Positions 11,034 through 34,958 of a stretch of 64,000 bases of DNA are shown in pieces. Source of the stretch: Alphaproteobacteria bacterium (GTDB taxonomy: Bacteria; Pseudomonadota; Alphaproteobacteria; UBA828); the NCBI GenBank assembly GCA_965214705.1, contig OZ243972.1, positions 832,001 through 896,000 on the forward strand, given 5' to 3'. The position numbers and the translations under genes are program-made. Under the pieces are notes generated by a model, which was not told where the DNA came from, did no database searches, and was given only the letters and a program-made list of their open reading frames with translations. Every line of letters starts with the position of its first letter. The first letter of the stretch is position 1.

Positions 11034-11129
11034 GCGGAAACGAGGAGCTCCACCCAGGGAGAGCCGGTATCCGGATGGAGCGTCGCGGCGGCTGGACGCA
11101 GGCGCCGCCGCTCGGCGGGGAGCGCTGAC

Positions 11130-11264
11130 ATGAGAACGCGGTACACCCCTTCAATCCGACTGCTGCCGCTCGGCGCCGGCCCGCGGCTGCTCGGGGCGGC
11201 CCTGATCGTTGCCGCGCTCTGGGGCGCGTTCTTCTGGGCGACGTCCACGCCGGGGGGGCCGTGA
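11130..11264 (+). CDS. Small 44-aa membrane peptide coupled to the Zn ABC ATPase gene
   Basis: MRTRYTPSIRLLPLGAGPRLLGAALIVAALWGAFFWATSTPGGP; one hydrophobic helix; stop overlaps the next start (GTGA). Confidence 0.6.
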   Translation: MRTRYTPSIRLLPLGAGPRLLGAALIVAALWGAFFWATSTPGGP

Positions 11265-12870: not shown

Positions 12871-12881
12871 AAGGAGTATCA

Positions 12882-13964
12882 ATGCTCACCCGCAGAACGC
12901 TTCTGATATCCGCCACCGCCCTCTTCGCCCTGTCGCTCGCCGCTCCGGCCATCGCAGAGACCGACAAACCGACCCCGGTGGTCGCCACCTTCTCGATCCT
13001 CGGCGACATGGTGAAGCGGATCGGCGGAGAGCACGTCGCTCTCACGACGCTCGTGGGCCCCGACGGGGATACGCATGTCTACCAGCCGACCCCCGCCGAT
13101 GCGCGGGCCCTCAGCGAAGCGAGGATCCTTGTCGTCAACGGGCTGCAGTTCGAAGGCTGGCTGGACCGTCTGATCGACGCTTCGGACTTTCGCGGTATCC
13201 GGGTGGTGGCGACCGACGGCATCGAGCCGATCGCGTTCGACGATGAGCACGGTCACGATGACGACCACGAAGAGCATGCGGAGGAGGTCGGGCATGACCA
13301 CGATCACGATGACCAGGCCGAGGTCGATCATGATGATGAGCACGAGGAGCATGCCGAGACGGCGATGCACGATCATGACGACGACCACGATGACGAGGCG
13401 CATGCCGAGGCAGGCCACGACCACCATGACCATGGCGCTTTCGACCCGCACGGCTGGCAGAGCCTCGGCAACGCCGTAGCCTATGTCGACAACATCACTG
13501 CCGCTCTGGCTCAGGCCGATCCGGCGAACGCGGCCGACTTCTACCAAAGCCGCGCAGCTTATGTCGCCGAGATCGAGGCGCTCGATGCAGAGATCCGCGA
13601 GATCATGGCAGCCCTGTCGGCCGATCGCCGCATCGTCGTCACCTCGCACGACGCGTTCCAGTATTTCGGCGGCGATTATGGGCTGACCTTCATCGCGCCG
13701 CAGGGGCTCAGCACCGAGTCGGAGGCATCCGCAAAGGATGTCGCCCGCCTCATCCAACAGATCCGTGAGCGGGGCATTCGTGCCGTCTTCATCGAGAACA
13801 TTGGCGATAGGCGCCTGCTCGAGCAGATCGCCAACGAGACCGGGGCCACCATCGGCGGCACGCTCTATCCCGGTGCGCTGTCCGGCCCGGACGGTCCGGC
13901 ACCGACCTACCTCGACATGATGCGGCACAACGCGACGACGCTCGCGCAGGCGCTGGCTTCGTAA
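12882..13964 (+). CDS. Zn ABC transporter substrate-binding protein with long His/Asp-rich loop (AztC/ZnuA-like)
   Basis: Signal peptide, VVATFSILGD, DTHVYQP, DPHGW, TSHDAFQY; AAGGAG RBS. Confidence 0.92.
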   Translation: MLTRRTLLISATALFALSLAAPAIAETDKPTPVVATFSILGDMVKRIGGEHVALTTLVGPDGDTHVYQPTPADARALSEARILVVNGLQFEGWLDRLIDASDFRGIRVVATDGIEPIAFDDEHGHDDDHEEHAEEVGHDHDHDDQAEVDHDDEHEEHAETAMHDHDDDHDDEAHAEAGHDHHDHGAFDPHGWQSLGNAVAYVDNITAALAQADPANAADFYQSRAAYVAEIEALDAEIREIMAALSADRRIVVTSHDAFQYFGGDYGLTFIAPQGLSTESEASAKDVARLIQQIRERGIRAVFIENIGDRRLLEQIANETGATIGGTLYPGALSGPDGPAPTYLDMMRHNATTLAQALAS

Positions 13965-14141
13965 GGTTTGGCGCACAGCCTTCGAAAGCCGGGACGCCGG
14001 ACTTCCAGGGACGAGAGGGACAGGTCGGCACACCACGCATGAGGTCGTGTCCCGAACAGCGCTTTCAGCCAGCATCTACGAACGGAGTAGAGGCCGCTGG
14101 GTGCGACTGAACGACTTCAAAGATTGAAGGAGACGGAATCC

Positions 14142-15098
14142 ATGAACCAGATCCCCGTTACCGTTCTGACCGGCTATCTCGGCGCCGGCAAGACAACGCT
14201 CCTGAACCGCATCCTGACCGAGGAGCACGGCAAGAAATACGCCGTGGTCGTCAACGAGTTCGGCGAAATCGGCATCGACAACGACCTCGTGGTCAACGCC
14301 GACGAGGAAGTGTTCGAGATGAACAACGGTTGCATCTGCTGCACCGTACGCGGGGATCTGATTCGCATCCTTGGCGGTTTGATGAAACGGCAAGACGGCT
14401 TCGATGGAATCCTCATCGAGACCACGGGCCTTGCCGATCCCGCGCCCGTCGCCCAGACCTTCTTCGTGGACGAAGACGTTCGGCGACGGACCTGGCTCGA
14501 TTCGATCGTAACGGTGGTCGACGCCCGCCATGTCGTCCGGCGGCTGGAAGACAGCCATGAGGCGCTGGAACAGATTGCCTTTGCCGACGTCATCCTTCTC
14601 AACAAGACGGATCTTGTGCCGGCCGATGAGCTGGCGCAGGTGGAAACGCGCATCCGTTCGATCAATGCGACGGCGGCTATCCATCGCACACAGCGATGCG
14701 AGGTGGGTCTCGACACGGTTCTGGGGCGCCGAGCCTTCGATCTTGATCGCATCCTGGCGATCGAGCCGGACTTTCTTTCGGAAGACGACCATGAACACGA
14801 CGATGCCGTGAAGAGCGTCTGCCTGCGCACCGACCGGCCGTTGGACGGAACCCGCCTCACAGGGTGGTTGCAGCGCCTACTCGCCGAGCGTGGTCAAGAC
14901 TTTCTGCGAACCAAAGGGATCCTGTCGATCGCCGGTCAGGACAAGCAGTTTGTCGTCCAGGCGGTCCATATGCTGATGGAGGGTAATTTCACGAAGCCGT
15001 GGAGCCCTAACGAGAAACGAGAGAGTCGCTTGGTCTTCATCGGACGAAACATCGATGAGCTGGAGCTGCGTCAGCAGTTCGACGCCTGCATCGCATGA
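14142..15098 (+). CDS. COG0523/CobW-family GTPase metallochaperone
   Basis: GYLGAGKTT, NEFGE, NGCICC, ETTGLADP, CobW C-terminal domain. Confidence 0.93.
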   Translation: MNQIPVTVLTGYLGAGKTTLLNRILTEEHGKKYAVVVNEFGEIGIDNDLVVNADEEVFEMNNGCICCTVRGDLIRILGGLMKRQDGFDGILIETTGLADPAPVAQTFFVDEDVRRRTWLDSIVTVVDARHVVRRLEDSHEALEQIAFADVILLNKTDLVPADELAQVETRIRSINATAAIHRTQRCEVGLDTVLGRRAFDLDRILAIEPDFLSEDDHEHDDAVKSVCLRTDRPLDGTRLTGWLQRLLAERGQDFLRTKGILSIAGQDKQFVVQAVHMLMEGNFTKPWSPNEKRESRLVFIGRNIDELELRQQFDACIA

Positions 15099-16150
15099 GC
15101 TTGTCCGCTGAGCTGGACAAGACGTCGCTGCTCGATCGTATCGGCACCGGCCGCTCGCTCGACGCTTATGTGGTGGGCGTTGCGTTCCTTGAGGAGGGAT
15201 TGCTCGCGGCTGCACTCGGGGACGGTCGGGTCGCGTTCATCGACAGCGAGAGCACGAATCCTCCCTCCTTCGTTTCGGTGCACGACGGGGCTTGTCTGTC
15301 GCTGGCCGTCGACTTGGGGCAGCAGCGCGTTCTGACGGGCGGAGACGACGCTCGGCTGGTGAGCACCGATACCGACGGCGAGACCACCGAAATCGCAGCC
15401 ATTGCGGGGCGATGGGTCGAGCCGATTGCCGTGAGCAGGGCATCCGGACTATGCGCTGCGGTCTTCGGCAAGACAGTTTCCCTTTTCGCGCAAGATGGAA
15501 GAGCGGTTGGAGCGTTCGATCATGCGAACACGGTCGGCGGTCTGGCATTCGACCCGAAAGGGCGGCGGATCGCTGCCGCGCACTACGGTGGAGTCAGCCT
15601 CTGGTGGGCGAAGCCCAGCACGCAGAAACCCAAACGACTCAGCTGGTCGGGTTCGCACCTTAGTCTGACCTGGAGCCCGGACGGGAAATACATCGTCACC
15701 GCAATGCAGGAGAACTTGCTGCACGGTTGGCGTATCTCCGACAGCGCCGATATGCAGATGCCTGGCTACCCGACGAAGGTCAAGTCGATGAGCTGGCTGC
15801 CGAAGGGAAGGTATCTGGCGACCGCCGGCGCGGAGTCCGTGGTTTGTTGGCCATTCCACGGCAAGGGCGGCCCACTGGGCAAGGCGGCGCTCGACCTCGG
15901 GTGGGGCTTCGAGGGTGTGGTGACGGTGGTGGCTGCCCACCCCCGGCATGACGTTGTCGCCGCCGGATACGAGGACGGTGCCACCATCCTCGTGCAGATC
16001 GACCGCGATCATCCGGTTGTGGTCAAGCGACCCGGCAAGGGCGCTGTGACCGCACTCGCCTGGTCGGCAGATGGGCAGCATCTCGCACTCGGTACCGAGA
16101 GCAGCTTTGTCGGCCGAATTAGCCTTTCCGACTGGCGGACTCCATCATGA
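15095..16150 (+). CDS. WD40-repeat protein
   Basis: Repeated LAFDPKG, LTWSPDG and LAWSADG blades; start overlaps the COG0523 stop. Confidence 0.85.
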   Translation: MSLSAELDKTSLLDRIGTGRSLDAYVVGVAFLEEGLLAAALGDGRVAFIDSESTNPPSFVSVHDGACLSLAVDLGQQRVLTGGDDARLVSTDTDGETTEIAAIAGRWVEPIAVSRASGLCAAVFGKTVSLFAQDGRAVGAFDHANTVGGLAFDPKGRRIAAAHYGGVSLWWAKPSTQKPKRLSWSGSHLSLTWSPDGKYIVTAMQENLLHGWRISDSADMQMPGYPTKVKSMSWLPKGRYLATAGAESVVCWPFHGKGGPLGKAALDLGWGFEGVVTVVAAHPRHDVVAAGYEDGATILVQIDRDHPVVVKRPGKGAVTALAWSADGQHLALGTESSFVGRISLSDWRTPS

Positions 16151-16184
16151 GCGCGAACAGAGGAACTCCAATCGAGGTTCTTCC

Positions 16185-16394
16185 ATGAAACGGAGGGCAA
16201 AACGCGCGCAATCCCCATGCATCGACGTCTGCCGACTCGACCCGAAGACGGGGTGGTGCCTGGGCTGTGGCAGGACCGCCGCCGAGATCGGAGAATGGCG
16301 CAAGCTCACACCGTTCCGCCGAGGCCGGCTTGAACGGGAATTCGCGCGGCGCCTGGTGAAGCTCGGACAGCGCACGCCATTGGAACACGAATGA
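16185..16394 (+). CDS. DUF1289-family Cys-rich protein
   Basis: SPCIDVCRLD..GWCLGCGRTAAEI..W pattern. Confidence 0.85.
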   Translation: MKRRAKRAQSPCIDVCRLDPKTGWCLGCGRTAAEIGEWRKLTPFRRGRLEREFARRLVKLGQRTPLEHE

Positions 16395-16722
16395 AACGGT
16401 TGGCGATCACTATTCACGATCCATGAACCCAGTTTCTGGCGGTTTTTGTGTGCGAGGCGTACCCCGGAGATAGCGATCTCAGAAGTGCCGATTTGGGTCG
16501 GGCTCGTTGGGCCGAAGGAGGATTCGAGAGCGCCGCCCGCGCCGGCCATCCGGCCGCGACGCTGTGCCCCGCGAGGACGAGGCGCGCGCGGCCGACGAGC
16601 TCGATCTGCTGCCGGACGGGTCTGCCATCGCCGAGATGCTGGGCGACCATGCGGTGATTCGGGAGCAGGCTCGGGCGTGCGCTGATCACAAGACCAGGTA
16701 GAGCCAGCAAGCCCGCATCGGC

Positions 16723-17142
16723 TCAGGAGAAGGAAGTCTGGCCCTCTATCAATTCGTGGGTGCAATCGAGCGGCGGAATACGCGCAAGGATGCCGCTTCG
16801 CATGCTCGGGGGCCGCTTGTTACGCTCCACGAACCCATCGCTTCGCGACAGCCACATCCGGACTGCTACGAGAATATCGTCGACGTGGCGTGCCGGATCC
16901 AGGTCGCCGAACAGGTATGTGAATCGGTCGCGATGAGAGAACGCAATAACGCAGGGGCGCAAACACTGACTCATGCAGCGTACGCGGCGCAGATTGAAAG
17001 GTGGCGGCAAAACTGCACCAAATAGGGACTGTTGCAATGCACTCGCCAGCACCGCGCCAGGGCGCTGGCGGTTTGCAGTGTCTGGCCAGCCCTGCGGTCG
17101 ACAGCGCGTGCATACCGAAATGGTCGGTAGCTCAATAATCAT
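16723..17142 (-). CDS. DUF1636-family metal-binding protein
   Basis: VCTRC, CMSQCLRPC, TYLFGDL, ILARIPP. Confidence 0.82.
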   Translation of the reverse strand: MIIELPTISVCTRCRPQGWPDTANRQRPGAVLASALQQSLFGAVLPPPFNLRRVRCMSQCLRPCVIAFSHRDRFTYLFGDLDPARHVDDILVAVRMWLSRSDGFVERNKRPPSMRSGILARIPPLDCTHELIEGQTSFS

Positions 17143-17852
17143 GATAGCGGCGTCTCGTGTTCGACCCCTCTCGGCCACGGCTCCGGAGATGCGTCCGATC
17201 GCTTGTTGAGGGAGAGCAGCAATCGCGTGCAGCCAGTGCCCGCGATGGGCGGCGAGCGGTGCACGATTCCGCTGCCTGGTCCGGCGCAGTTTCCCTTGAA
17301 TATCGCCACGTCGTTGCCACGGATGTGCTCTAGCGGCCCTTTGAACCGCTTCTGTGCGCGCAACGCCCGCTCGGCGTGGATCGATTGGACCCACTCGGTG
17401 CCGGGACCGCGGTACGTTGTCAGGAGGCGCGCCTCCACGTAGTCCCGGTGGAACTTCCAGCAGGAATCGTGGCTGACGCGCGCCAGCCTTACATCAACGA
17501 GATCACTCCGGGCGATGCCAGCAAAAGCCGAGACGAGATCATCGACGTCCCCGACCAGCAGGTCGCGCATGTCTCCGGCAGGCATACCAATTTCGTCCAA
17601 ATGCGGTTCCACCGCACGTCGAAGGTCGCCGGGCCGGACAAGAATACGCAGGTCGGGAAGACACGAAGCATCCATTCGGTCGAGCCATGTCTGCAGGCAC
17701 ATGGGAAGCGCGCGCCGCCAGATCACGAGCTCCATGTTGGGCTTGTTAATGGCGGCGAGGCCTTCCGCTGCGTCGCACGTCGCGATGCCCACGCCCAACG
17801 TGGCGGAGGTCCTAACGGACTCACCTTCCAGGGATACCGACGGAACGGTCAT
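17139..17852 (-). CDS. DUF1826-family protein
   Basis: [34 protein letters not shown]; typical COG0523 neighbour. Confidence 0.85.
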
Positions 17853-19081
17853 GACGGCTCGGCCCGCTTCCAGACCGGGAATGGATCCTTGAGCTTTTTC
17901 CAGGCAGCAGGCTGCATGGCTTTGGCGTTGGCATCGCCGACAAGGCAGGCGTCGAGCCGGCGTCGGATCGCGGCCTCGTCCATGTCGGTGCCGATGAAGA
18001 CGATTTCCTGGTGGCGGTCTCCGTAGACGGGATCCCAGGATTTGGCGATGTTCCGACGCCATTCCGGGTGATCGGGCCAATGTTCCTTGGGGGCGTTCGC
18101 CCACCAGAAGCCCACGGCCCTATGGCGGACAAGCGCGCCGGCCTGGCTCAACTCGCCGACCCATTCAGGACGGTTGGCCAACCAGAAGCGCCCCTTGGCA
18201 CGAATGACCCCCGGCCACGACGAGTTGATGAAGGCGTGGAATTTCTCGGGATGAAAGGGACGGCGTGCCTGATACACGAAGCTGCGCACCCCATACTCCT
18301 CGGTCTCCGGCTTGTGCTCGGCGAAGCCGTATAGCTCCTTGAACCAAAGCGGGTGTTCCTGAGCCTTGTCATGGTCGAACCGGCCGGTGTTCAGCACCTT
18401 GTCCAGCGACACACGGGACATGCTGGTCTCGATGAGTTCCGCATCGGTGTTGAGCGACCGGATGATCTTGCGCGCGGCATCGAGCTGTTCGGGCCTTGCC
18501 GCATCGATCTTGTTCAGAATGATGACGTCGGCGAATTCGATCTGATCGACGAGCAGATTGACCAGCGCGCGGTTGTCGTCCTCGCCCAGCGCCTCGCCCC
18601 GGTCCTTGAGGAAATCGGTTGATGCGTAGTCGCGCAGGAGGTTTGCGGCATCGACCACGGTCACCATCGTATCGAGGCGCGAGACATCCTCCAGGCTCTC
18701 GCCCTCTTCCGTCCGGAAGTTGAAGGTGGCCGCTACGGGCAGCGGCTCGGAAATGCCGGTCGATTCGATGAGAAGGTAGTCGAACCGGCCATCCTGAGCG
18801 AGCCGACGCACCTCCTTGAGAAGGTCATCGCGCAACGTGCAGCAGATGCAGCCATTGGTCATTTCGACCAGAGTCTCTTCGGTGTGGCTCAGATCTGCGC
18901 CGCCGTCGCGGATGAGATCGGCGTCGATGTTCACCTCGCTCATGTCGTTGACGATGACCGCGACGCGCTTGCCTTCGCGGTTGTTAAGGATGTGGTTCAT
19001 CAGCGTGGTCTTGCCGGCGCCAAGGAAGCCGGAAAGTACGGTGACGGGCAGAATGGGTCGTTCCAGGGGCTGGGTTGTCAT
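17849..19081 (-). CDS. COG0523 Zn metallochaperone GTPase, ZigA/YciC type
   Basis: [61 protein letters not shown]. Confidence 0.93.
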
Positions 19082-19153
19082 GGCAATTCTTCAGAGCGTG
19101 ATTGCGACGTCGGGGGCGCTGGGTGCGAGCGCCGCCTGGCTCGTTGGAGACCC

Positions 19154-19657
19154 TCAAAGCTGCGTCGGATTCGGCGCGTCACCGTAGACGTCCTTTGGAT
19201 CAAAGGACCTCCGTGACTCCGCGAACACGAGTCGAACAGGTCCACCAGAAGGGCCGCCGAGCTCAACCGACCGGTAGAAGCAGGAACGGTATCCGACGTG
19301 ACAACTGGCGCCCGAACCGGCGACCCGGACGCGCAGCCAGACGGCGTCCTGGTCGTCGTCGATGCGCATCTCGACAACCTCTTGGACGAGGCCGCTGGTT
19401 GCGCCCTTGCGCCAAAGGCACTGGCGGCTTCGGCTCCAGTAGTGCGCTTCGCCGGTCGCGATCGTTCGCTGCAGAGCCTCACCATTCATGTAGCCCAGCA
19501 TCAACACTTCGCCCGTGTTGGCGTCGGTCGTGATGCAGGGGAGCAGTCCGTCGGCATCGAACTTGGGTGCCAAGGCGAGGCCTTCCTCGACCTGCTCGAC
19601 CGTCGTCCGGGCAGCGAAGGCGGCGACGGCTGCTGGAACGGATTTGTCAGGAGCCAT
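19154..19657 (-). CDS. hisI: Phosphoribosyl-AMP cyclohydrolase paralog
   Basis: [27 protein letters not shown]; DDDQD in place of DCDxD. Confidence 0.92.
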
Positions 19658-20300
19658 TGGAGCCGCTTCGGGGGCTTCCGATCATCGCGAGAAACTCCCG
19701 GCGGGTCGCCGGGTCGTCGCGAAAGGAGCCGAGCATGCGGCTGGTCACCATGCTGACACCCGGCTTGCGAATCCCGCGCGTGGTCATGCATTGGTGCGCC
19801 GCCTCGATGACGACACCGACACCGCGCGGCTTCAGCACCTCCTGTAAGGTATCCGCGATCTGCGACGTCAGCGCCTCCTGGATCTGCATCCGCTTGGCGA
19901 GCACCTCGACAAGGCGCGCAAGCTTGGAAATCCCGACGATGCGGCCCGCCGGCAGGTAACCGATATGCGCCTTACCCAGGATGGGAACCATGTGGTGCTC
20001 GCAGTGCGATTCGAGGCGGATGTCGCGCAAGACGATCATCTCGTCGTAGGCGGCGGTCTCCTCGAACGTCGTCGCAAGCAGCGCGACCGGATCTTCGTTG
20101 TATCCGGCGAAGAACTCCTCATAGGCCCGCACCACGCGCGCGGGCGTGCCTGCGAGGCCTTCGCGGTCGGGGTCGTCGCCCGTCCATTCGATCAGCGTCC
20201 GCACCGCCGCTTCCGCCTCGGACCGGCTGGGCCGTCGGCGCCCGCCCGAGCCGGTGAACACTGATTCTGTGGGCCGGCTTCCGACCACCGCTGTGTCCAT
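19647..20300 (-). CDS. folE: GTP cyclohydrolase I, type IA
   Basis: [37 protein letters not shown]. Confidence 0.95.
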
Positions 20301-20331: not shown

Positions 20332-22059
20332 CTTGAGTAACTTCTCTCTAAGCCGTTGACATAGAGGCATTTGTGTTTTTGTTGTCGTCGTCGATCTCGA
20401 CCAGTTGGAAGCCGAGCTTCTTGGCCTGTCGACGGAGCGAAGAGAACTTTCGGTCCAGGCGTCGGCTCTCGTAGACCTCCATCCCCTTCTCGGCATATTG
20501 CTGGCCGCGGGTCACCATCAGGTAGATCAGGCAGGCGAGTTCTCGGGCGGTGGCGACAACGGCTACGCTGGTGTCCATCCGGGCGAGGCGGCTGCGGTGC
20601 TTGGCGCCGATGAAGGTTTGGCTGGTGCGAGCGGTCATGGCCGCCATGCGCAGTGCCTGGCCAACGCGGTTGACCACCTTGGGCCCCCGGCCCGGCAACG
20701 GTTTGCCGCCGCTGATCCTGGTCCCAGGCGCCAGCCCCAGCCAGGAACTGAAGTGCTGTGCGGAGGGAAAGGCGGAGAAGTCAGGACCGATCTCGGCGGC
20801 GATCACCAGGGCAGTGTTGACGCCGACGGTGGGGATTGCGGTGAGATCGACCCCCATCATCTTATGCAGCGCCATAGCCATGGCCTTATCCTGCCCGCGG
20901 AGCGCCCTGCCGCTGCTGCTTGGGGTCTCGTTCGACGCCGTGCCCGATGATCCGACACTGGGAGTGTCCTCGGGCGTACCCTCATCCGTCGGATCGTCCG
21001 GCGGGGTCAGGTGCTCAACCTCCGCCATGATCCGCGCCTCGCAGTCCGCGATCTGCTGCTCCAGAAAGTCGTAGCGCTGCATCGCCTGCTCAAGCGCGAA
21101 CAGGTGCTCCTCGCGCCAAGTGCCCTCCAGGCTCGCGGCAATCGTGTCGGCGCTGGCCTTGATCCGCCTGTCGCGAAGCGACGCCAGCCGCCCGGGGTCG
21201 CGCTCGCCGGCGATGATCGCCCGCAGGATGCGCTCACCCGTCTTCCCCATGATATCGCTGATCACCGAGTCCAGACGCACGTTCATCTGGGTCAGCGCCT
21301 TCTGCATATGCAGCACGCAGCGAGAGCGGTCCTCGATCAACTGCTTCGCCTGGCGCATGAAGGAGCGCAACGGGCAGATCGCGTCGCCCGGCCGGAAGGC
21401 GCCGCGCAGAAGGCCGTAGGACATCAGCTGCCAGATCCACTGGCAGTCCAGCACATCGCTCTTGCGCCCGCCGATCTGCTTCGTCATCCGGGGCGGCACA
21501 AGCATCACCTCGAAGCCGGCTCGATCCAGGACCTCGTAAACCGGGATCCAGTAGACCGAGGTCGACTCCATCGCCACCTTCGTCACACCGCACGACTTCA
21601 GCCACTCGGCCATCGCATCCAGGTCGCGCGTGAACGCGCCGAACTCCCTCACCGGTTCCTCGGCTCGCTCCGGATCCACCGCCACGAAGTGCCGGTCCTT
21701 GCCGATGTCGATCCCGGCGCAATTCGGGTGCACTACCTTGAGGCGCTGCCTCCTTCTCCGCTTGCGCGCCATCGAGAGCCCCCCCAAACTCCGTTGACGT
21801 TGCGGGTGGGGAGGAACCGCGGCGAAGTCTCAATCTCTTGAACGAGGTCACGGGCGAACCCGCGCCATCAGTGACAGAAGCCGATCACGGTTCGGGCCAA
21901 GCTTCCAAACGGGTGCCCTCGCACGCCACTGAAGGGACGGCCTCGTCTGCCCTACCCGCTACCACTTCACGCTTCAACCGTCGAAGACTCAACCCCAGTC
22001 GAAGACTCTACCCCCAGTTACTTCAGCGACTGAGCCGCTGCGCCGCAGTGGTGGTGGCT
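20332..22059 (-). mobile_element. IS110-family element (recombinase 20348-21772) with upstream non-coding region
   Basis: AGIDIG, MESTSVYW, RKSDVLD (DEDD) and SWLGLAP..SGG. No terminal IRs; GGCT at 20328-20331 and 22056-22059 are the candidate junction repeats. Ends are inferred. Confidence 0.85.
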
Positions 22060-22357: not shown

Positions 22358-23389
22358 TCAGTCGGGCTTGCGGGCAAGGAAGCAATAGAGCGGAGTGAAT
22401 ATGCCCAATTTGCCGCCCGCGACATAGGCGTTCGCCGTGCGGTCCATCAGTTGGACAACGGCCGCTGAACCATTGGGAAAGAGCCGGAGCACCTCCGCCA
22501 TCCGCAGACCCGCGAATATCGCCCTGCGACCCAAGGGCGTCCTGCGAAAAGCGTTGCCCAATGTCCCGCTCCGGCCTTCCATTGGCCGATGCCACGGTAT
22601 GCCCTGGCCTTCCCTGTCGTCCCTGTTCGCTGCTTCGATGACGTCGAAGCCCGCAGCCTCAAGCGCGCGATTCACCTCCGAGAACGTGGCGATCTCTTTC
22701 AGGGCAATTCCCCGCTTGAGTTCATCCTTGATAGTGCGGTGACGGCTGTCGCTGGGGTCAAACTTTTCCGTCATGCACATCTCCTGACCCCACAGCAGGG
22801 CTCCCGGTTTGAGCACACGATATATCTCCGCAAACGCGCGCTCCTTGTCCGGCGCGTGGCAGGTCGACTCGATGGCATAACCCGCATCGAACGAGTTGGC
22901 CTCAATCGCACTCATATCCATGAAGTTGCATTTGATATACTCCGCCATATCGTCGAGCCCCGTCTCGATATTCCTCCGCTTGGCCTGTTCCAACTGCTGT
23001 TCGTTATTGTTGAGGCCGACAACCCTGGTGCCGCCTTCGCGGATGACCCGCCGCATGGGACCGCCCACGCCGCAGCCGACATCGACAACCACCATGCCCT
23101 CTCGTAATTCCAGCTTCTCGATCATCAGACGCTGATGGCGAACGACCGAGTCCTCCAGAGATTCCTCGCGCGTCAATGGCGCGAAATGCAGGGACTCGCC
23201 CCACCCGAATTGCATGATTCCGCTGCACAGCTCGTAGTAATCGTTCACCGTCTCGGTGAAGTCATAATCGCCGTCATCGGCATCGGCCCGCTCCATTCTG
23301 TCGAATCGATCACCGAAGCGTGCTACACGACCTCTGACGTCCCGGACTTGGTAAAGGATCCGCAGGTATCTGGACAAACTTGCTAACAT
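22358..23389 (-). CDS. Sterol C-24 methyltransferase (SMT/Erg6-like)
   Basis: All SMT signature regions present: FGWGESLHFAP, VDVGCGVGGP, YAIESTCHAP, EIYRVLKPG, and C-terminal GGKLGIFTPLYCFLARKP. Confidence 0.88.
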   Translation of the reverse strand: MLASLSRYLRILYQVRDVRGRVARFGDRFDRMERADADDGDYDFTETVNDYYELCSGIMQFGWGESLHFAPLTREESLEDSVVRHQRLMIEKLELREGMVVVDVGCGVGGPMRRVIREGGTRVVGLNNNEQQLEQAKRRNIETGLDDMAEYIKCNFMDMSAIEANSFDAGYAIESTCHAPDKERAFAEIYRVLKPGALLWGQEMCMTEKFDPSDSRHRTIKDELKRGIALKEIATFSEVNRALEAAGFDVIEAANRDDREGQGIPWHRPMEGRSGTLGNAFRRTPLGRRAIFAGLRMAEVLRLFPNGSAAVVQLMDRTANAYVAGGKLGIFTPLYCFLARKPD

Positions 23390-23825
23390 GTGCTGCCTCG
23401 TTTATTGTCCATCTCGCAGTTTAGCTCTTTGGTAGCGGATGGCAACGACGCCGGAAGCATTTGCTAGTCTTACAGCGGCTTGTCTCCACATCACAAGGGA
23501 GGGATCCAGGCGAGGGGAGGCGCCCTTCGCCGCCGGCACCGGGGAAAAAACTAAGCGAAGCCGGTTGACGGCTGGTGCCGGGACCATCGACATGGCCCTG
23601 CTGTCGGGCTCATGCGCCGTCCATTTCGCTGACGAACTCAACGGTCGTTTCATTACACTAAAGGCGCCGAGCACGGGCCACTAGCAATGCAGGGGCCGTC
23701 GAGGCGACCCCAAAGACGTGACGGGTGGCGAAAACCGGGCTAAATTTCGCGCGACATGGTGAGAGGGGGCGCTTGTCTGGGAACGATCGGCCCCCATCTC
23801 AGCTCTTATGGGAGGCCTTGGCCCG

Positions 23826-25613
23826 ATGCCCGACTCGGCCGCTACGGCCCAAGAGCTGCGTCTGCCCGAGGAGCTTATCCTGATGCTCCTCAACGAGCAG
23901 AACGGCTATTTCCACCAGGTCCCCGGCTGGAATCTGAACTGCGCGGTGGTGGGCGCGGTGCTCGCGGAACTCTCCCTGCTCTCGCGCATTGACACTGATC
24001 TCGATTCGCTGATCCTCGCCGATTCAGCGGAGACAGGCGATCCGGTGCTCGATCCCGTCCTAAAGGAAATCGCCGGGGAGTCCGTTCAACGGGACGCCGT
24101 GTACTGGATCGAACGGCTTGCCAGCAAGGCGGAGTCGATCATCGACCACACCCTCGAACGCTTGGTCGAGCTGAAGATCCTGGAGCATCACGACGGCGAT
24201 TTCTGGACGCTGGCCGCCGCGACGTGGCGCGAGGAGTTGTCCGGTGGTTCCCAGGAAGGCACCGTTGGCCAGTTCGTAAAAACGCGTGTCCTCAAGGCGC
24301 TCTTCACCGAAGAGATTCCCGACCCCAGGGACATCATCGTCATCTGCCTCGTCAATACGTGCGACGTCTTTCGCTTCATGTTCGAAATCGACGACGAGAC
24401 CCAAGAGCGGATCGATTTCATTTGCCGGATGGATTTGATCGGCCGTTCCATCGCCGCCGCGGTCGAGCACAACATCTCCAGCCCGTCGCTGCGGCCTTCG
24501 GCGCTGACTAAGAAAATACCCGTCGTCCCCCTGCACAAGCTCTTGCTGAACCCGCGTCTTCGGGGCGGCAACATCGCCGCCATTTTCGCGCACATCGCGG
24601 AAGAACACGGTCCGGTTTTCCAAATCCGTCCTCCGTTCCAGGAACCCACGACCTTCCTCGCCGGGCCCCAAGTCAACCGTTGGATACACCGGAACGGGCG
24701 CATGTATCTGCGGTCCAGGGACTATTTCACCGACATCGAGAAGGTTTATGGCGCGTCCGGGGTGATTGCCTCGCTCGACGGGGCCGACCATTTTCAACTG
24801 CGCAAGGCGATGCAGCCGGGCACTTCCCGCGGGAGGCTGGAGGATCGACTGCATGACCTCTACGGCCATGCTCGCGCGTTTATGGCGGACTGGAATGTGG
24901 GATCGTCGCTGCCGGCGACCAGCATGTGCCGACTGATGATCAACGCGCAGATATCCCCGCTGGTCATCAGCATTGATTCACAGGACTTCGTGGAGGACCT
25001 GATCAGATTCAAAGAGCGCGCGCTCACCACCCACGTGGCCAAAGTTCTGCCCAAGTTCATGCTGAACACCCCATCGATGAAACGTGCGTCAAGGGCCATC
25101 GACGTCGGGGTACAGCGGATCCTGGGCCTCCACACGCCCGCCCAGCGGGTCGGTTGCCCGCGGGATCTCGCCGACGACCTGCTCAGCCTCCACGCCAGTG
25201 ACCCGCAGTTCCTGCCCGAATCGAACCTGGCCTTCGCTCTTTCGACGCCCATGCTGGCTAGCATGTATCTGGGAGACGCGTTCGGCTGCGCGCTCTACGC
25301 CATGGCGTCGCAGCCTACGCTCTACGAACGGATCCGTGCCGAAGCCGACGCCCTCTTCGAGAACGGCGATCCGGATGCCAAGGACTTCGCCGACGAGTCC
25401 ATCGACGTTACGCGGCGCTTCATCTTGGAATGCCTGCGCATGTACCCCATCGTGCCCGCGTCCATCCGCAACGTCATGAATTCATGCGTTGTCGAGGGCC
25501 ACGAGCTGCCCGTGGGGGCGCGCATCGCCATCGCCTCGACGGCGCCGCATTACATGAGCGACGTCTTCCCGGACCCCTTCACATTCGACATCGACCGCTA
25601 TCTGCCGCCGCGT
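23826..25613 (+). pseudogene. GPP34/GOLPH3-domain-cytochrome P450 fusion, C-terminally truncated
   Basis: N-terminus LRLPEELILMLL..GAVLAELSLLSRI..TGDPVLD..LERLVELKIL is GPP34-like. The P450 part has LDGADHFQLRK, ECLRMYP (ExxR) and FPDPFTFDIDRY, then runs into ISAs1 sequence before the heme-Cys motif. Confidence 0.8.
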
Positions 25614-26980
25614 GCGCGCCCCGGTCGAGCAGGTAGCGGGCGAACTTGCGCTGGGTTAGCAGCGCGTCCGTCGTGACCGTCTTGCCCGCGATGTTCGGGA
25701 TCAGGTCCACCAGCGCCGTCACGGTGCCGATCTCGTTGGTGCGCTTTGTCTCCTCGTCGGCCCCGACTTTCAGGAGAAGTTTTTTTGGGCGAGCGTGGCC
25801 TTGGTCTCGTGCCCGACCGCGCTCATGACATGAGCCTGGGTCCCGTCCTCGTCGATGGCCCCCCTCAGGGTCTTGCCGTCGATGGCAAGCGCCGCGTCGC
25901 CTGAGCCGTGGGCCTCCTGCCACTTGCGCAACGCCTCGTCCAACTGGTCCGGGTCCACCCGGATCACCACATTGCGGATGGTCGACATCGAAGGCGGCCG
26001 GCGCACCCCGTCGCGCAGCCGCACGCCGAAGCGGGCCAGCGCCTTCTCGCCGAGATCGTCGACCCACTCGGAGATGGCCTTCCAGCCTCGCATGCCGCAG
26101 AGCGTCGCGCCACTCGCAAGCGCGAGCACGCTGGGCAGCGAATGCCGCCGTCCCTTGCGCGTGCGGGGGTCGTCGATGTCCTTGAAGTAGGCGTAGAGCG
26201 ACTCTTGCTGAGCGGCGCTGATCATGGTTCTCGGAACTCCTTTCTTCCACAACTCCCGATCCAGCCCGGCAGCGGACAGCCGGCGGCAGGCGTCGGGAAC
26301 CAGGGGGCGCAGCAGCACAAGCTTCGGCGTCGAGCCGGCGACATAGCCCGAGCGGTGGCGCCGGAAGCCGCGGGTCTGGCCGACCGCCAGCCATCCAGCC
26401 GCCCGGTAGACCGTGCCCCGGAACCTCGCCGCGTCCACGAATGTTTCCAGCATCAGCACGGGGTGGCCGAAGCGGGCCGGCCAGTCGCGCGCCAAGCGCC
26501 GCGCGCAAAGCCCCAGCACCCGCGAGCCGAGGTTCGGAACACCCCGTCCCGGCAGGATCAGGAAGCGCGCGTTGTTCGCGATCAGATGCAGCCGCCCGTG
26601 CTGCGTGCGGAAGTCCCAGCCGATCCACTCGTCCCGCGCCCGGCACTTGCGCGCCGCAGCCGAAAACACGGCCAGCGCCAGCCACTCGCCGCGCCGATGG
26701 GCGACGTACCACGCCGTCGCCCCCACCTTCGCAGACGCACCCAGGTAGTGATGCCCCTCCATCAGCGCGCGGAACCGGGCCTCGTCCTCCGGCCGGACAG
26801 CAGCGACATCGACCTCGGAAAGATCCACCGTAGAAACCGTCCCCCTGCTCGAAGCCGATCCGCAGCAGAACACCGCGAATCCAGTCGCCTCAATCCATAG
26901 CAGGGTTGGCGCGCGCTGACCAGACCCAAGGTCAACTCGTAGCGCAGAACTCAAAATCAGGCTTGGACAAATTCGCCCTG
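25612..26980 (-). mobile_element. Truncated ISAs1-family element with N-terminal DUF4338 domain
   Basis: HHYLG/RDEWIGW/NNARFLILP/LETFVD (DUF4338), then DPRTRKGRRH, AIDGKTLRG, NEI, TDALLTQ. End CAGGGCGAATTTG at 26980; A7C frameshift site at 25779-25786; 3' part deleted. Confidence 0.82.
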
Positions 26981-27204
26981 CCGTCGGCCCCATGGCGGCT
27001 TGACTGGCCGCACGTAATGCAGAACCCTGCTGCCATGTTGATCCTCAGCGCTCCCACCGGTCGCAGGGACGGCAGAGGCAGGTATGACACTGGCGCCTCT
27101 TGCGCAGCGAACGCGTCGGCGGAAAGGTACGCTGAGTCACATCCTTCAAGCCAAGTACCGACCTCGCTGACGTTGCACGGTGTCAGCCAAGAACGGTGGA
27201 GAGG

Positions 27205-27301
27205 ACACAAACGTAGTGCCATAATCCAGGGCCGAGAATAATTTAACGCCGCCTTTTCAACAACTTGGACCTCGCGCTCGGACTAAAATGGCGAAGATGG
27301 G
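27205..27301 (+). mobile_element. Orphan right end of an IS1634 type-B relative
   Basis: CACAAACGTAGTGCCATAATCC...AAAATGGCGAAGATGGG matches the right end of the elements at 58024 and 60184. Confidence 0.75.
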
Positions 27302-27831
27302 TCAAGAACAAACGTCTCGTCAGCCTCGACGATCCCGGCAAGCCGGTCCGGCGCCTGGCGCACCGCCGCCAGAAAGCGGTGGCGCCAGCGATGCGCCGTG
27401 CTCGGCGCAATCCCGCAGCGCGCGGCAGACTCCTTGATCGTCTCGCCCTCGGCAAGCGACGCGCCAAAGGCCAGCCAGCGCTCCTTGTGGTGAAGCCCGG
27501 ACAGTGCCGTGCCCGTGAGCGCACCGAAGGTCTTGCCGCACTCCTTGCACCGGAAGCGGCGAAGACCGCGCGCCTTGCCCCGCGACACCGCCCCGCCGGC
27601 GCCGCAATGCGGACAGCGCCGCTCGTCATCCACGCCCAGCTCGATCGCTGCCAGCGAGGCCGCGCCCTCCGGCGGGTCCGACAGCACCGCCGCGACCTCC
27701 TTGCGCTGCGACGCCGTCAACTCATCGACACGCGAGAACCAGTCCCGAAACCGCTCGTGATCCATCTCTCTGACCCCCAATGCGAATCGGGAGCGATTCT
27801 ATCACGGTGCATACGTTTCACGAATTGAGCC
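27302..27831 (-). mobile_element. IS1595-family element, 5' fragment
   Basis: CPHCG..FRCKEC Zn ribbon, HTH, VEADETF. Near-identical to the copy starting at 35444; end GGCTCAATTCG. Confidence 0.85.
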
Positions 27832-27897
27832 TTAGAAAAAGGCACTAGTCTAGAGCCAGCAAAACCGGTGTGAAGCAGGAAGGTATAGACCCTGCTC

Positions 27898-28109
27898 GGG
27901 TGTAGTTCTCGTATGGCGATGATTGACTCGGCTTGATCCATGAGTTCCTGCGGTGCGGAGCATCCTCACCTCCCGGTGACGCCCACTGTCGTGACAAAAG
28001 CCCGCCCTGGAACGGGCGATTGTCACGAAACTACGATTTCGCCTGTTTGCCTCGACCCATGAACCACGTTGTATCAATGGCTTACGATTGCCATACGAGA
28101 ACTACACCC
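27898..28109. mobile_element. 212-bp non-autonomous ISKra4-type element (MITE-like)
   Basis: Terminal IR GGGTGTAGTTCTCGTATGGC / GCCATACGAGAACTACACCC; interior resembles 30340-30516. Confidence 0.8.
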
Positions 28110-28290
28110 CGTCGTTGAGCTTCGCGATGCCGATGAGGGTGTACATCACCGCCGCTTGCTCGCCGCCAAGATCAGAGCCGGCGCACAGCCAGGAATTGCG
28201 TCCGAGTGCAATACCGCGAAGCGCTCGCTCGCCCGCGTTGTTTGTCAGGCAGATGTGGCCATCATCTAGGAAGCGGGCATACCGACAAAC
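28110..28290 (-). pseudogene. IS66 transposase fragment
   Basis: FLDDGHICLTNNAGERALRGIALGRNSWLCAGSD..AAVMYTLIGIAKLND. Confidence 0.85.
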
Positions 28291-28311: not shown

Positions 28312-28837
28312 TTAGAGAGCAATCGCAGCCAAGAACATTATGCCGCCTTCGACGCGCTGTTGGATGGTCTGAAGCTTGGCGAAACCGTGCTTCCCGGCCG
28401 CACCGTGAGTTGCCTCGTTGAAGATGTGGAACAGCTGAAGAATGTCGTCGATATCCTTTTCGACGAACCCGAGTATTTCTGGCGAATCGACACCCTTCCG
28501 CTTCAGCAGGTAGCGAATCTTGGCGCGGCGCGATGGCCCAGTTCTATTGGGCGTAAGCTCGCAGTTAGGGTCGGCTTCCAAGACATCCTCGTTGTCCGCC
28601 CATTTGTCGAGAATCTCCGTGAAAACCTCTCGCGCACTGGTGCAGAAGTGCCGCCCGGCGTCCGGATTATCCGGATTGAGGGAAAAGAGCGCCCCACGCC
28701 AGCGGTCGCAAAGGTCCTGAGAGAACCCAGATAAGTACTCCAGGATTCCGGAGTCCTGAACGCTTTCGGAAACCTTTGTCTGTTCCACAATGAGGGCTTC
28801 AGCCACCGCCGCACTGTTGCTAGCTTCCTTCTCCGAC
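28312..28837 (-). pseudogene. C-terminal part of a putative pPIWI-associating-nuclease-like defence protein
   Basis: RWRGALFSLNPDNPDAGRHFCTSARE...RRAKIRYLL...FNEATH; 5' end abuts an ISKra4 IR. Family call is from memory. Confidence 0.5.
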
Positions 28838-32691: not shown

Positions 32692-34152
32692 CTAGTATTT
32701 CGTCCTTACGAACATACCGATCGTGCCATAGCATTGATAGCCAGTCCGCTTATGTTTGTGCTTGTTCAATGTCGCATTGTAAATTCTCTTGTTGAAGATC
32801 TTCCCGCAAACGGTGCATTTGAAGACGTATGTTGGACCACTTGCAGCCCTGGAACCCACACTTCGGGGTGTTCTGCGTGCGGGTGAACGCCGCACGGTCC
32901 GTGCGCGGCCCGCACTCAATGTGCTTTCAGCGCTGGACCTTGATGTCCTCGGAATGCTCTGAGGCCCCCATGGCGTTAGCTCGATTGGGTATCGCGGCGC
33001 GAATGGCGTTTGGGTGGGTTTGACTCCGAGAATGCTGTCGACCAAATAGCTGCGCGGCTGGCCGCTGTCCGCGCGTACGGCCATGAGCAATACGTCTCCG
33101 GCCTGTGAGCGGCGGAGCGAGTAGGCTTCGATCGCGCGTGTCGAACGATTGCCCTGCTTGTCGCGGTAGTCGATCTCCACGAGAAGGCGGTTTGCGGCAG
33201 CAAAGCGGATCATTTCGATGAGACTCTGCCCTCGGCTGCCTGCGGGCAAATCGAGTACACGCTCGCGGATGAGCGTGTCGCCGGCGCCGACAGGCATCGC
33301 CGCAAGCGGCTGAGCGACGGCGCCTTGGAGCCAATCGAAGATTTCCGGGAGCGCGTCCCAAAACGTCGTGACCGGGAGCAGCGCGGGGAGCTGGTGCTCC
33401 AGCATGTGAATCCAACCAGTCTCAAGTTCCGCACGGTGCGGCTCAAGGTCGGTCATGCGCGGAATGCTGATGCCCTTGAATTCACACTTGGCGCGCAGGA
33501 CTTCCATGAAGCGCTGCGATTCCGGACGTGCCTCGGTGTTCCGATACAGATGTACGACGTCATAGAGATCGCGTGGGCGCGTCCGTTCCGCGAGCGCTCT
33601 GAACTTCTCCGCGAACGCCTCCGTGTAATCGTAGGCCAGGACTTCGATGCCATCTTCCGGAGCATCGCTGTATGGATGGAAAATCTGCGCGTTGACCGGG
33701 GGGAGAACGATCCGCTCGTCGGCGGTCAAGTCAAGCTTGATGCGCGGGAGGGCGTGGGTCGATGAGACGGGGCCCTTGTAACTGATCTTGCCTTGGCACG
33801 AGAATTGACCCCGGGGGTTCTCGTAGATATCGAACTCCTGTTTGTCGGCCGGAATCTCAATGCCGGTTTGGTCGTAGATCCATTCACCAATTTCAGAAAA
33901 TGCGCCCTTCAAGAAGCTGGCGTCGAGATGCTGCGGTTCGCGGAGCGTGAAGTCGAGATCCTCCGAGAATCGATAGGTCTCGAAGAAGCACTTTTTCAGG
34001 CACGTGCCGCCTTTGAATATCCAACTCTCCGCGAGATCCTTGTGCCCATAGATGCCGGCGAGCATCCAGCCGAGAACATAGTCCTTCTCCACGACGTGCG
34101 GCGTGAGTGATGTCTGCTGGGCTATAGCAAGGATTTCGCGTTTGTCGATCAT
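32692..34152 (-). CDS. AbiEii-type nucleotidyltransferase toxin with C-terminal WYL-like domain and Zn finger
   Basis: EKDY, FKGGTCLKK, RFSEDLDF, EKFRAL..R.RPRDLYD; then VEIDYRDKQGNRSTRAIEAYSL..PRSYLVDSI; then CTVC..HKH..C. Confidence 0.85.
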   Translation of the reverse strand: MIDKREILAIAQQTSLTPHVVEKDYVLGWMLAGIYGHKDLAESWIFKGGTCLKKCFFETYRFSEDLDFTLREPQHLDASFLKGAFSEIGEWIYDQTGIEIPADKQEFDIYENPRGQFSCQGKISYKGPVSSTHALPRIKLDLTADERIVLPPVNAQIFHPYSDAPEDGIEVLAYDYTEAFAEKFRALAERTRPRDLYDVVHLYRNTEARPESQRFMEVLRAKCEFKGISIPRMTDLEPHRAELETGWIHMLEHQLPALLPVTTFWDALPEIFDWLQGAVAQPLAAMPVGAGDTLIRERVLDLPAGSRGQSLIEMIRFAAANRLLVEIDYRDKQGNRSTRAIEAYSLRRSQAGDVLLMAVRADSGQPRSYLVDSILGVKPTQTPFAPRYPIELTPWGPQSIPRTSRSSAESTLSAGRARTVRRSPARRTPRSVGSRAASGPTYVFKCTVCGKIFNKRIYNATLNKHKHKRTGYQCYGTIGMFVRTKY

Positions 34153-34958
34153 TGCGTTTCCTTGAGAGCCCAGCGCTGCGGCACGCGCAGGCGCCATTTT
34201 GTCACGACGAGCGGCCCATCCTGGGCAGGATCGAGCTTCGCATGACCGCCGCTCAGATGCTGCTCGCAAAGCCGGCCCAGTTCAGCACCGCCAGGAAAGC
34301 GCTCGGCCAGAAACCCGAGGCGCTTGAAGACAGCGCCGTTGCCGAGGCGCACTGCGTGGTCGACGAGCTTCTCGTCGTCACGATCATCGCGTCGCAGATA
34401 GGCAGCGAGGCAGTCGGATATGTGCTGGATGCCGCCACCGATCGCCGGATCGTCGAGCATGTCGATGATCGTTCGGTGCACGTCGGAGACGGGCACTCGC
34501 GTCTGATGACGCCAGACATGCTTCGTGCCGAAGATCTTCCGCTCGTGGATGTGCTTCAGCGAAAAGAGCGTGCCGTGCCGCTCCTGGCGCTTCTGGCGCA
34601 CCGGCTGTGCGGTCATCACGAAGATATCCTTGAAGATCTGTTCGGTCAGGTCCCAGTGCTCGGCTGCCGTGCGGCCGCCGATGTAGGCTGGAGCGAAGAG
34701 TGCGGGAACGAGCACCCAAGGGTCATCGAGGACGCGATCTGAGCCCATGGTGTCGATGGAAGCGGCGACATAGGCACCACGACCCACTCGTCTCAGCCAT
34801 CCCTGCTCAACCCAGCGGGACAGACGTTGGGCGGCGCCGGTACGGTCGAGCTGGAGGGCAAGCACCACGTCATCGACATAAATCACGTCGCCGGCGGTGG
34901 ACAGCACCCGGACAAGCTGCGCGCGTCCTCGGGGGAGGTGGGGCATGCTTTCTTCCAT
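34149..34958 (-). CDS. AbiEi-type (type IV TA) antitoxin/regulator
   Basis: N-terminal wHTH (LSRWVEQGWLRRVGRGAY), AYIGGRTAAEHWDLTEQI, SDVHRTIIDML; stop overlaps the toxin start. Confidence 0.85.
   Translation of the reverse strand: MEESMPHLPRGRAQLVRVLSTAGDVIYVDDVVLALQLDRTGAAQRLSRWVEQGWLRRVGRGAYVAASIDTMGSDRVLDDPWVLVPALFAPAYIGGRTAAEHWDLTEQIFKDIFVMTAQPVRQKRQERHGTLFSLKHIHERKIFGTKHVWRHQTRVPVSDVHRTIIDMLDDPAIGGGIQHISDCLAAYLRRDDRDDEKLVDHAVRLGNGAVFKRLGFLAERFPGGAELGRLCEQHLSGGHAKLDPAQDGPLVVTKWRLRVPQRWALKETQ

Follow-up and report, generated by a model that had tools for sequence, protein, structure and literature searches.

A sterol methyltransferase-family gene beside an insertion-truncated GPP34-P450 gene in an alphaproteobacterium, and the candidate sterol-modifying cassette to which the pair belongs

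Genes at the locus

The DNA analysed here, which we call the window, is a 64,000-nucleotide stretch of an alphaproteobacterial genome (GTDB lineage UBA828; GenBank assembly GCA_965214705.1) and covers positions 832,001 to 896,000 of contig OZ243972.1 (C1:832001-896000). The assembly totals 7.92 Mb in three contigs (C1 to C3) and has 67% G+C. Our subject is a pair of divergent genes in the window: one encodes an S-adenosylmethionine (SAM) methyltransferase of the sterol methyltransferase (SMT) family and is intact, and the other encodes a fusion of a GPP34 domain with a cytochrome P450 (GPP34-P450), which an insertion sequence (IS) has interrupted (Table 1). A sequence-only reading of the window, made before any database search, had seen a two-gene sterol-remodelling cassette here and put the spacer between the genes at roughly 430 bp, close to the 418 bp that we measured.

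The open reading frame (ORF) of the fusion runs on the plus strand from window position 23808 to 25676 and matches both GPP34 (PF05719, 97 bits, residues 19-220) and p450 (PF00067, 82 bits, residues 251-603), but the P450 match ends at position 393 of the 462 in the profile. Homologues of full length have 673-675 aa, and the window copy, which is 97% identical to one of them (P0001), departs from them after a DIDRYLPPR motif. Its final ~72 codons are gone, including the haem-cysteine loop that all 16 aligned homologues have. No remnant of the lost end was found anywhere in the genome (tblastn with the C-terminal 83 residues of P0001), and the genome holds three short GPP34 genes but no second GPP34-P450 fusion. 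Since truncation has removed the haem loop and no other place in the genome contains the lost end, the window P450 is a pseudogene. The sequence-only reading was right about the two domains, but its cassette of two acting genes needs amending here for the P450; the end that it gave for the feature (25613) matches the break at 25612. An unfused P450 paralogue at C1:1113363-1114574 (34% identical) was considered as the lost end and rejected; its neighbours, an SDR and a luciferase-like oxygenase, are unrelated to the cassette.

Position 25612 is the start of a 1369-bp repeat, the IS, of which 19 further full-length copies, 99.7-100% identical, lie on C1, C2 and C3, along with partial copies. Such near-identity indicates a recent expansion and thus a recent insertion. 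Contigs from other public sequencing runs read through position 25612 with an intact P450, whereas those from run X1, which holds the exact window sequence, break there, so the insertion is also lineage-specific. We saw no inverted repeats of note at the IS ends. Beyond the IS, a mosaic of other repeat fragments stands where the original sequence downstream of the P450 would be. The closest relative among the loci we collected (L008; 98.8% identity over 3345 bp) is also divergent, with a gap of 438 bp, and its fusion is intact at 673 aa; the window segment 16430-22269 is missing between its matching blocks. Fusion decay is not confined to the window: one other fusion (G052:C1:106515-107692) contains in-frame stop codons and another (G045:C424:54-734) is reduced to pieces.

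Structural comparison says nothing about the substrate of the P450. The predicted structure of P0001 has a mean predicted local distance difference test (pLDDT) score of 68, and Foldseek against the PDB finds CYP184A1, CYP51s and P450 BM3 alike at TM ~0.55, which is uninformative. By sequence, the best solved relatives of the fusion P450 are CYP51s at 65 bits, and the same targets give 348 bits with the genome's true CYP51. The N-terminus of the fusion has no hydrophobic signal-like segment, the highest 19-residue hydropathy being at residue 170, inside a domain. A predicted complex of the methyltransferase with the GPP34 domain scored 0.00, which counts neither for nor against binding.

Table 1. 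Features of the methyltransferase/GPP34-P450 locus, in window coordinates
Feature	Position	Strand	Basis
IS110-family transposase, on the other flank of the SMT	20348..21787	-	Pfam DEDD_Tnp_IS110, Transposase_20
SMT-family SAM methyltransferase, intact, 343 aa, divergent "L89" clade	22358..23389	-	Pfam, alignment, tree
Divergent intergenic spacer, SMT/GPP34-P450, 418 bp	23390..23807	.	ORF coordinates
GPP34-P450 fusion, truncated pseudogene	23808..25611	+	Pfam, alignment to full-length homologues
GPP34 domain	~23862-24467	+	Pfam
P450 domain	from ~24558	+	Pfam
Insertion sequence, 1369 bp, interrupting the P450	25612..26980	-	blastn repeats, Pfam
Transposase ORF of the 1369-bp IS	~25770..26993	-	Pfam DDE_Tnp_1_assoc + N-terminal DruA-like domain
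Mosaic of other repeat/IS fragments	26981..28110	.	blastn repeats, Pfam
IS1595-like helix-turn-helix/Zn-ribbon ORF inside the mosaic	27283..27780		Pfam

Recurrence in other genomes

When one genome per species was scanned, the query being an alignment of the window-type SMT, 80 loci were obtained whose SMTs are 62-99% identical. The carriers come from 11 named phyla: 29 are Chloroflexota, 26 Pseudomonadota, 6 Gemmatimonadota, 4 Latescibacterota, 3 Thermodesulfobacteriota, 2 Nitrospirota, 2 Acidobacteriota and one each Nitrospinota, Binatota, Rhodothermota and Actinomycetota, with 4 unplaced. More than half of the loci (42/80) are on contigs of at least 1 Mb.

The pairing with GPP34-P450 recurs. 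In 64 of the 80 genomes a fusion gene is no more than 10 kb away from the SMT, and in 50 it is directly beside it (gap <700 bp); in these 50 the arrangement is convergent in 20, P450 then SMT in 18, SMT then P450 in 8 and divergent, as in the window, in 4. The 16 genomes with no fusion nearby have one elsewhere, which is near full length in 14, broken by stop codons in one and a fragment in one, so 78/80 SMT carriers have an intact fusion somewhere in the genome. Tandem pairs of GPP34-P450 genes also occur (L011:3789-8131; G043:C1:286221-290940; G071:C1:15893-20023; G079:C1:2269185-2273388), 59-64% identical to P0001.

Clustering all ORFs of the 80 loci showed that the unit is usually not two genes, as first proposed, but four. 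The additional partners are an oxygenase with Rieske and KshA_C domains (56/80 loci) and an RND transporter, either of an MMPL/sterol-sensing/Patched type (34/80) or an AcrB-type pump (24/80; HlyD in 17 loci, OEP in 11). Fusion, oxygenase and transporter all stand beside the SMT at 47 loci, and 13 loci have none of them. An SDR gene is present at 15/80. The best solved relatives of the oxygenase are KshA enzymes, at 75 bits. The RND partner matches HAE3, HpnN, Patched and BstA models far under their cut-offs (e.g., HpnN 90 vs 752 bits and BstA 39 vs 1400 bits), making it a relative of HpnN and BstA and not a member of either family. Among neighbour families found in at least seven of the 80 loci, Pfam recognises only the fusion, the Rieske oxygenase, RND parts, the SDR and an ABC ATPase, and there is no KstD or Hsa. 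The remaining conserved neighbour ORF clusters have no Pfam match and are probably shadow frames.

The window locus has neither additional partner beside its pair. No transporter is there, and the genome's orthologue of the Rieske oxygenase (62-64% identical) stands alone next to rpoC, 575 kb away. A Rieske gene within the window (42625-43659) was rejected as the partner, being of the VanA type and not the KshA type.

The placement of the pair in mobile DNA, which the sequence-only reading had proposed, stands: IS elements surround the locus, and carriers of the gene belong to many phyla. Median SMT distances are similar within phyla (0.29) and between them (0.33). SMT and P450 distances are correlated (Mantel r 0.465, reached by none of 2000 permutations), a kind of test that relatedness inflates. 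One cross-phylum pair is especially close: the SMTs of a Latescibacterota genome (L037, on a 5.6-Mb contig) and a Gemmatimonadota metagenome-assembled genome (MAG; L041, on a 17-kb contig) differ by 5% and their fusions by 8.5%, either because the genes were transferred very recently or because the short contig was mis-binned.

As for habitat, DNA nearly identical to the locus occurs in runs labelled as sponge metagenome (three studies), coral metagenome or coded organisms, and two runs (X13 and X14) contain relatives 98-99% identical. Some fusion loci found in metagenomes are on contigs whose prefixes, LXNI and JGIcombinedJ30088, are those printed for sponge metagenomes (PMC10070321; accessible part of 10.64898/2025.12.19.695621). 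Compared with a 99% identical relative, the locus has 40 differences in 3343 bp, of which 6 synonymous and 3 non-synonymous ones are in the SMT, too few to judge selection. An RNA run of a close relative (X20) contains short contigs on both the SMT and the fusion; an RNA library may contain DNA, contigs tell nothing of the level of expression, and no meaning attaches to parts of the window that such contigs leave uncovered.

The methyltransferase

The window SMT matches Methyltransf_11 (PF08241, 70 bits) and Sterol_MT_C (PF08498), the latter at 60 bits against a Pfam cut-off of 21.7, so the profile check proposed with the sequence-only reading came out in its favour; no NCBIfam model reaches its cut-off. 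At 343 aa it has the modal length of its family, and homologues align over residues 1-343.

To compare residues we numbered positions as in 10.64898/2025.12.19.695621, and as a check, nine of nine canonical SMTs agree with the publication at all positions that were mapped. The accessible part of that source lists 25 residues as conserved in functional SMTs and states that these enzymes keep the Region I motif GWGxxFHF. The window SMT departs from the 25 at three (T78S, F89L and L341M) and also has methionine at position 81 in place of the aromatic Y81, so its Region I reads GWGESLHF. The earlier claim that every SMT signature region is present in an intact ORF is therefore true of the regions but not of residues 78, 81, 89 and 341.

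These changes are shared by relatives. In a clade of 81 members, all 81 have leucine at Erg6 position F89 and methionine at Y81, and we therefore refer to this as the L89 clade. T78, G86, G147 and L341 vary within it. H90, E195, D125, G127, G129 and P133 are retained by 80-81 members, and the clade also keeps W286 and most C-terminal residues; the Region II SAM motif DxGxGxxGP, E195, G217 and H90 are all present in the window SMT and in 75-81 of the 81. Across 150 cluster representatives of the SMT family, the motif was readable in 98 and unreadable in 52; position 89 is F in 88, L in 8 and I in 2, and the eight with L are exactly those nearest the query.

A tree of 62 rows (IQ-TREE, quick settings) supports the window clade of 12 rows with an SH-aLRT of 100 and puts the length of its stem at 0.91 changes per site, and FastTree recovers the same clade. 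Its rows were named plant SMT1s, algal SMTs, two bacterial SMTs, the SMT of this genome's own sterol cluster (described below) and further representatives. The clade is nested within the SMT family among plant SMT1, algal and bacterial SMTs, close to other bacterial groups, in a tree whose root is arbitrary and whose rows include neither Erg6, SMT2 nor a non-SMT outgroup. With that composition, the expectation that the protein would fall within the SMT family and not with other methyltransferases was borne out.

Taken together, the L89-clade enzyme looks active, by its retained residues, with a remodelled side-chain pocket. Given the deviation in Region I, it cannot be taken for granted that the enzyme methylates ordinary delta-24 sterols at C-24. 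The predicted structure of the window SMT (mean pLDDT 63.7) falls below 50 in Region I and in a large part of the C-terminal domain, which makes it unusable for pocket analysis.

Sterol synthesis

Whole-genome searches with PF13243 and PF08491 found no oxidosqualene cyclase (OSC) or squalene epoxidase (SE) in the window, as the sequence-only reading had said; all matches are on contig C3 except a weak one at C1:1486167. The proposed check of the rest of the genome for an OSC gave a positive result. A cluster on C3 (locus L005) holds an SE-OSC fusion, CYP51, an ERG4/ERG24 reductase, an SdmA-like Rieske oxygenase and an SMT. The SE-OSC fusion (L005:12631-16089, i.e., C3:2424631-2428089; minus strand, 1152 aa) scores 743 bits with TIGR03463 and 271 with the hopene cyclase model. 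The 348-bit CYP51 match is to the Methylococcus enzyme (6mcw), and the SdmA-like oxygenase scores 401 bits. The cluster SMT is 396 aa long, lies on the opposite strand, carries a canonical GWGQSFHF motif and is 45% identical to the window SMT. Since copies of the same IS are shared among the three contigs, these belong together, and by its gene content the genome makes sterols, the cluster being complete-looking. None of OSC, CYP51 or sterol reductase lies in the window. The triterpenoid cyclase review PMC12414744 makes no mention of an SE-OSC fusion. The stretch L005:472-9101, a few kb from the C3 cluster, contains DDE transposases and a 1157-aa ORF for a TrwC relaxase/helicase, and the cluster may itself be on a mobile element.

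Most carriers of the L89-clade SMT differ from this genome. Their PF13243 matches form two score classes, and the lower one (160-201 bits, open frames of 1144-1670 aa) contains this genome's own OSC fusion (178 bits), so we take that class to represent OSCs. On this basis an OSC-like cyclase is present in 16/80 carriers (14/50 plus 2/30) and absent from 64/80. If every kind of cyclase over the cut-off is counted, 40/80 carriers (21/50 plus 19/30) have one and the other 40 have none. At least 14 carriers with a near-whole assembly in a single contig have no cyclase match at all, so incompleteness cannot explain the overall pattern. The suggestion that the cassette acts on exogenous or host sterols thus fits the 64 carriers with no OSC-like cyclase but fails for this organism: the absence of an OSC from the window cannot point to exogenous sterol when the genome has an OSC on C3.

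Interpretation

We consider it probable, with moderate confidence, that the window locus holds one copy, eroded by IS activity, of a cassette which spreads by horizontal transfer through bacteria associated with sponges and corals and modifies mostly exogenous sterols. The full cassette would consist of an L89-clade SMT and GPP34-P450, in most cases joined by a KshA-like Rieske oxygenase and by an RND transporter, either MMPL/sterol-sensing or AcrB in type. We read it as a module for outside sterols because its partners resemble steroid-handling proteins and most carriers cannot make sterols; with most carrier genomes unable to cyclise oxidosqualene, the usual substrate is probably a sterol from outside, i.e., from a host.

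A plausible working can be sketched from family resemblance. The transporter would carry sterol across the envelope, the methyltransferase would place a methyl group from SAM on a sterol double bond, probably in the side chain, and the P450 and Rieske enzyme would oxygenate or desaturate the sterol. It is probably the GPP34 domain that targets the anchorless P450 to the membrane, replacing the anchor and keeping the enzyme at a lipid surface. The substrate, the order of steps and the role of GPP34 in this sketch are all presumed, and they stand on a different footing from the gene content, the truncation, the recurrence, the clade identity and the absence of OSC from most carriers, which the data show. 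At the window locus, where only the methyltransferase survives, that enzyme could equally act on the organism's own sterols.

Several results count against this interpretation. The similarity to KshA and CYP51 is low, so the steroid assignment is a family-level resemblance, and no redox partner is conserved beside the cassette in the 80 loci. Linkage is weaker in the converse direction: among 80 GPP34-P450 loci from metagenomes, several of which are short or duplicate, an SMT lies within 8 kb in 27 and is adjacent in 16 (a KshA-like gene is present in 33 and an MMPL gene in 29). The window's genome carries its own OSC, and MAG incompleteness may hide some cyclases in other carriers. Region I of the clade is unlike that of all functional SMTs, given F89L and Y81M in 81/81 and variable T78 and G86, and we found no demonstrated activity for any enzyme of the L89 clade. 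The accessible part of 10.64898/2025.12.19.695621 reports 11 SMTs without activity on desmosterol or 24-methylenecholesterol, of which 7 have a different residue at one or more of the conserved positions, and such deviating enzymes are said to possibly require other sterols; members of the L89 clade may be among those inactive SMTs.

Of the alternatives, the one closest to home is that the window SMT simply serves the organism's own sterol pathway as an additional methyltransferase, catalysing for example a second or different alkylation, with the broken P450 irrelevant. The C3 cluster, with SE-OSC, CYP51, reductase, SdmA-like oxygenase and canonical SMT, offers such a pathway in what shared IS copies show to be one genome; the window SMT is 45% identical to the canonical one; and synonymous changes outnumber non-synonymous ones, 6 to 3, though the count is too small to show selection. 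This explanation is nevertheless unlikely in our view, as members of the SMT clade occur mainly in genomes that have no OSC (64/80) and nearly always together with the fusion (78/80). Less probable again is that the whole locus is a decaying relic in which the SMT, too, has no function and awaits loss. The truncated P450, the density of IS copies, the missing transporter and Rieske partners and the broken fusions of G052 and G045 all suit decay, but the SMT frame is intact and full length with all catalytic residues retained, the near-identical IS copies date the insertion as recent, and the RNA-library contigs of the close relative on both genes are a weak hint in the other direction. Equally improbable is an SMT acting on a non-sterol lipid (e.g., squalene, a hopanoid, another isoprenoid or an unsaturated acyl chain), with the changed Region I reflecting that substrate. 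Triterpene methyltransferases of Botryococcus are SMT-like. The long clade stem (0.91), the fixation of F89L and Y81M, the restriction of L at position 89 to the 8 query-nearest of 98 readable representatives and the squalene-hopene-type cyclase in many carriers, chiefly Chloroflexota, would agree with it; against it, 40/80 carriers have no triterpenoid cyclase over the cut-off, the Sterol_MT_C domain is retained along with E195 and H90 (sterol binding and deprotonation), and the partners resemble steroid enzymes and sterol-sensing-type transporters.

Two further alternatives take the partners as their starting point, and we regard both as very unlikely. GPP34-P450 could be a eukaryote-like effector which binds host phosphatidylinositol 4-phosphate (PI4P) and helps a symbiont to escape phagocytosis, with the SMT unrelated or loosely related. 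This role was proposed for GPP34_L, described as found only in sponge symbionts (accessible part of PMC11706023), and the GPP34 match is solid at 97 bits. However, the fusion has no N-terminal signal-like segment, a P450 requires haem and cytoplasmic redox partners, and the gene is tightly linked to those of a methyltransferase, a Rieske oxygenase and RND transporters, as in a metabolic module, a linkage which the effector role leaves unexplained; the words "sterol" and "methyltransferase" do not occur in the main text of PMC11706023 as far as it is accessible. Alternatively, the KshA-like oxygenase and P450 could begin ring opening and side-chain breakdown of host steroids as food, along the lines of the 9,10-seco pathway. 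KshA enzymes are the nearest solved relatives of the Rieske partner, and a KshA cluster confined to sponge MAGs, with signs of horizontal transfer, has been read as degradation (Holert et al. 2018, accessible part of PMC5790920). Such a pathway has no place for a methyltransferase, though, and neither KstD nor Hsa is among the recurrent neighbours at the 80 loci, whole genomes not having been searched for either.

The horizontally moving sterol cassette therefore remains our preferred reading, and a more specific version of it can be imagined. Sponge symbionts that do not make sterols may import and remodel those of the host, the L89 SMT alkylating another side-chain position or an oxidised intermediate which the P450 and KshA-like oxygenase supply or consume, and GPP34 serving as a lipid-targeting module instead of a phagocytosis effector. 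We offer this in full as a rather doubtful proposal. If it were true, part of the unusual sponge sterols, and hence of the "sponge" sterane biomarkers, would be bacterial work on host sterols.

Each part of the cassette has published relatives. The bacterial SMTs described from sponge symbionts (Brown et al. 2023, PMC10070321; accessible part of 10.64898/2025.12.19.695621) belong to the same family (Methyltransf_11 + Sterol_MT_C) and habitat, but the window clade differs in having L89 and M81 in 81/81 members and in being linked to GPP34-P450 instead of sterol synthesis clusters; neither "P450" nor "GPP34" occurs in the main text of the first source or the accessible main text of the second. 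GPP34_L, in the accessible part of PMC11706023, has the same GPP34 and P450 architecture and the same spread over many symbiont phyla. The window copy differs in being truncated before the haem loop, and where the role in print is PI4P binding and phagocytosis control, here the gene travels with an SMT, a KshA-like oxygenase and an RND transporter. Steroid-gene clusters of Ircinia symbionts, with ERG24-CYP51-LSS and an opposite-strand SMT1/ERG6, match the layout of the C3 cluster and were horizontally transferred among about 10 phyla (accessible part of PMC9531527); the window locus differs from them in lacking ERG24, CYP51 and LSS and in having an SMT of a different clade. KshA, HpnN and BstA are comparable only with partners that lie outside the window.

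In eukaryotes, side-chain alkylation by Erg6/SMT is followed by a P450 C-22 desaturase (CYP61/CYP710). The cassette is like that route in having a SAM methyltransferase and a P450 which would act in succession on a side chain, a comparison by description only: the nearest solved relatives of the fusion P450 are CYP51s, and Foldseek does not discriminate among P450 families.

We found no statement in main-text literature of a linkage between GPP34-P450 and SMT genes or sterols. What the sequence-only reading called an undescribed system is thus new in one respect: SMTs and GPP34-P450 have each been published (PMC10070321; accessible part of PMC11706023), and only their linkage appears to be undescribed. 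That linkage would make one genetic unit of two marks of sponge symbiosis which were published separately, and it gives GPP34-P450 a testable metabolic reading. It also points to a class of SMT-like enzymes, and bears on which organisms make side-chain-modified sponge sterols and hence on the reading of sterane biomarkers. What the window adds is an eroded example only, and it shows IS activity as a cause of cassette decay.

Other features of the window

The locus lies in a G+C dip (0.56-0.63 at 14-36 kb of the window; 0.67-0.70 elsewhere). Adjoining it in this low-G+C stretch, which reaches 0.56 at 30-34 kb, are a predicted pPIWI-associating nuclease domain protein (28312-28806, minus strand, 128 bits) and an AbiEii-WYL protein (32692-34269, minus strand). 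Further along is a second DruA-like/DDE ORF (38945-41236).

On the other side, the genes at 8505-20300 resemble a metal-starvation set. They include an ORF with a FUR domain (8505-11033), two CobW-type GTPases (14124-15098 and 17849-19081) with a WD40 beta-propeller protein between them (15095-16150), and an ORF (19647-20300) with a likeness, judged by eye only, to GTP cyclohydrolase I.

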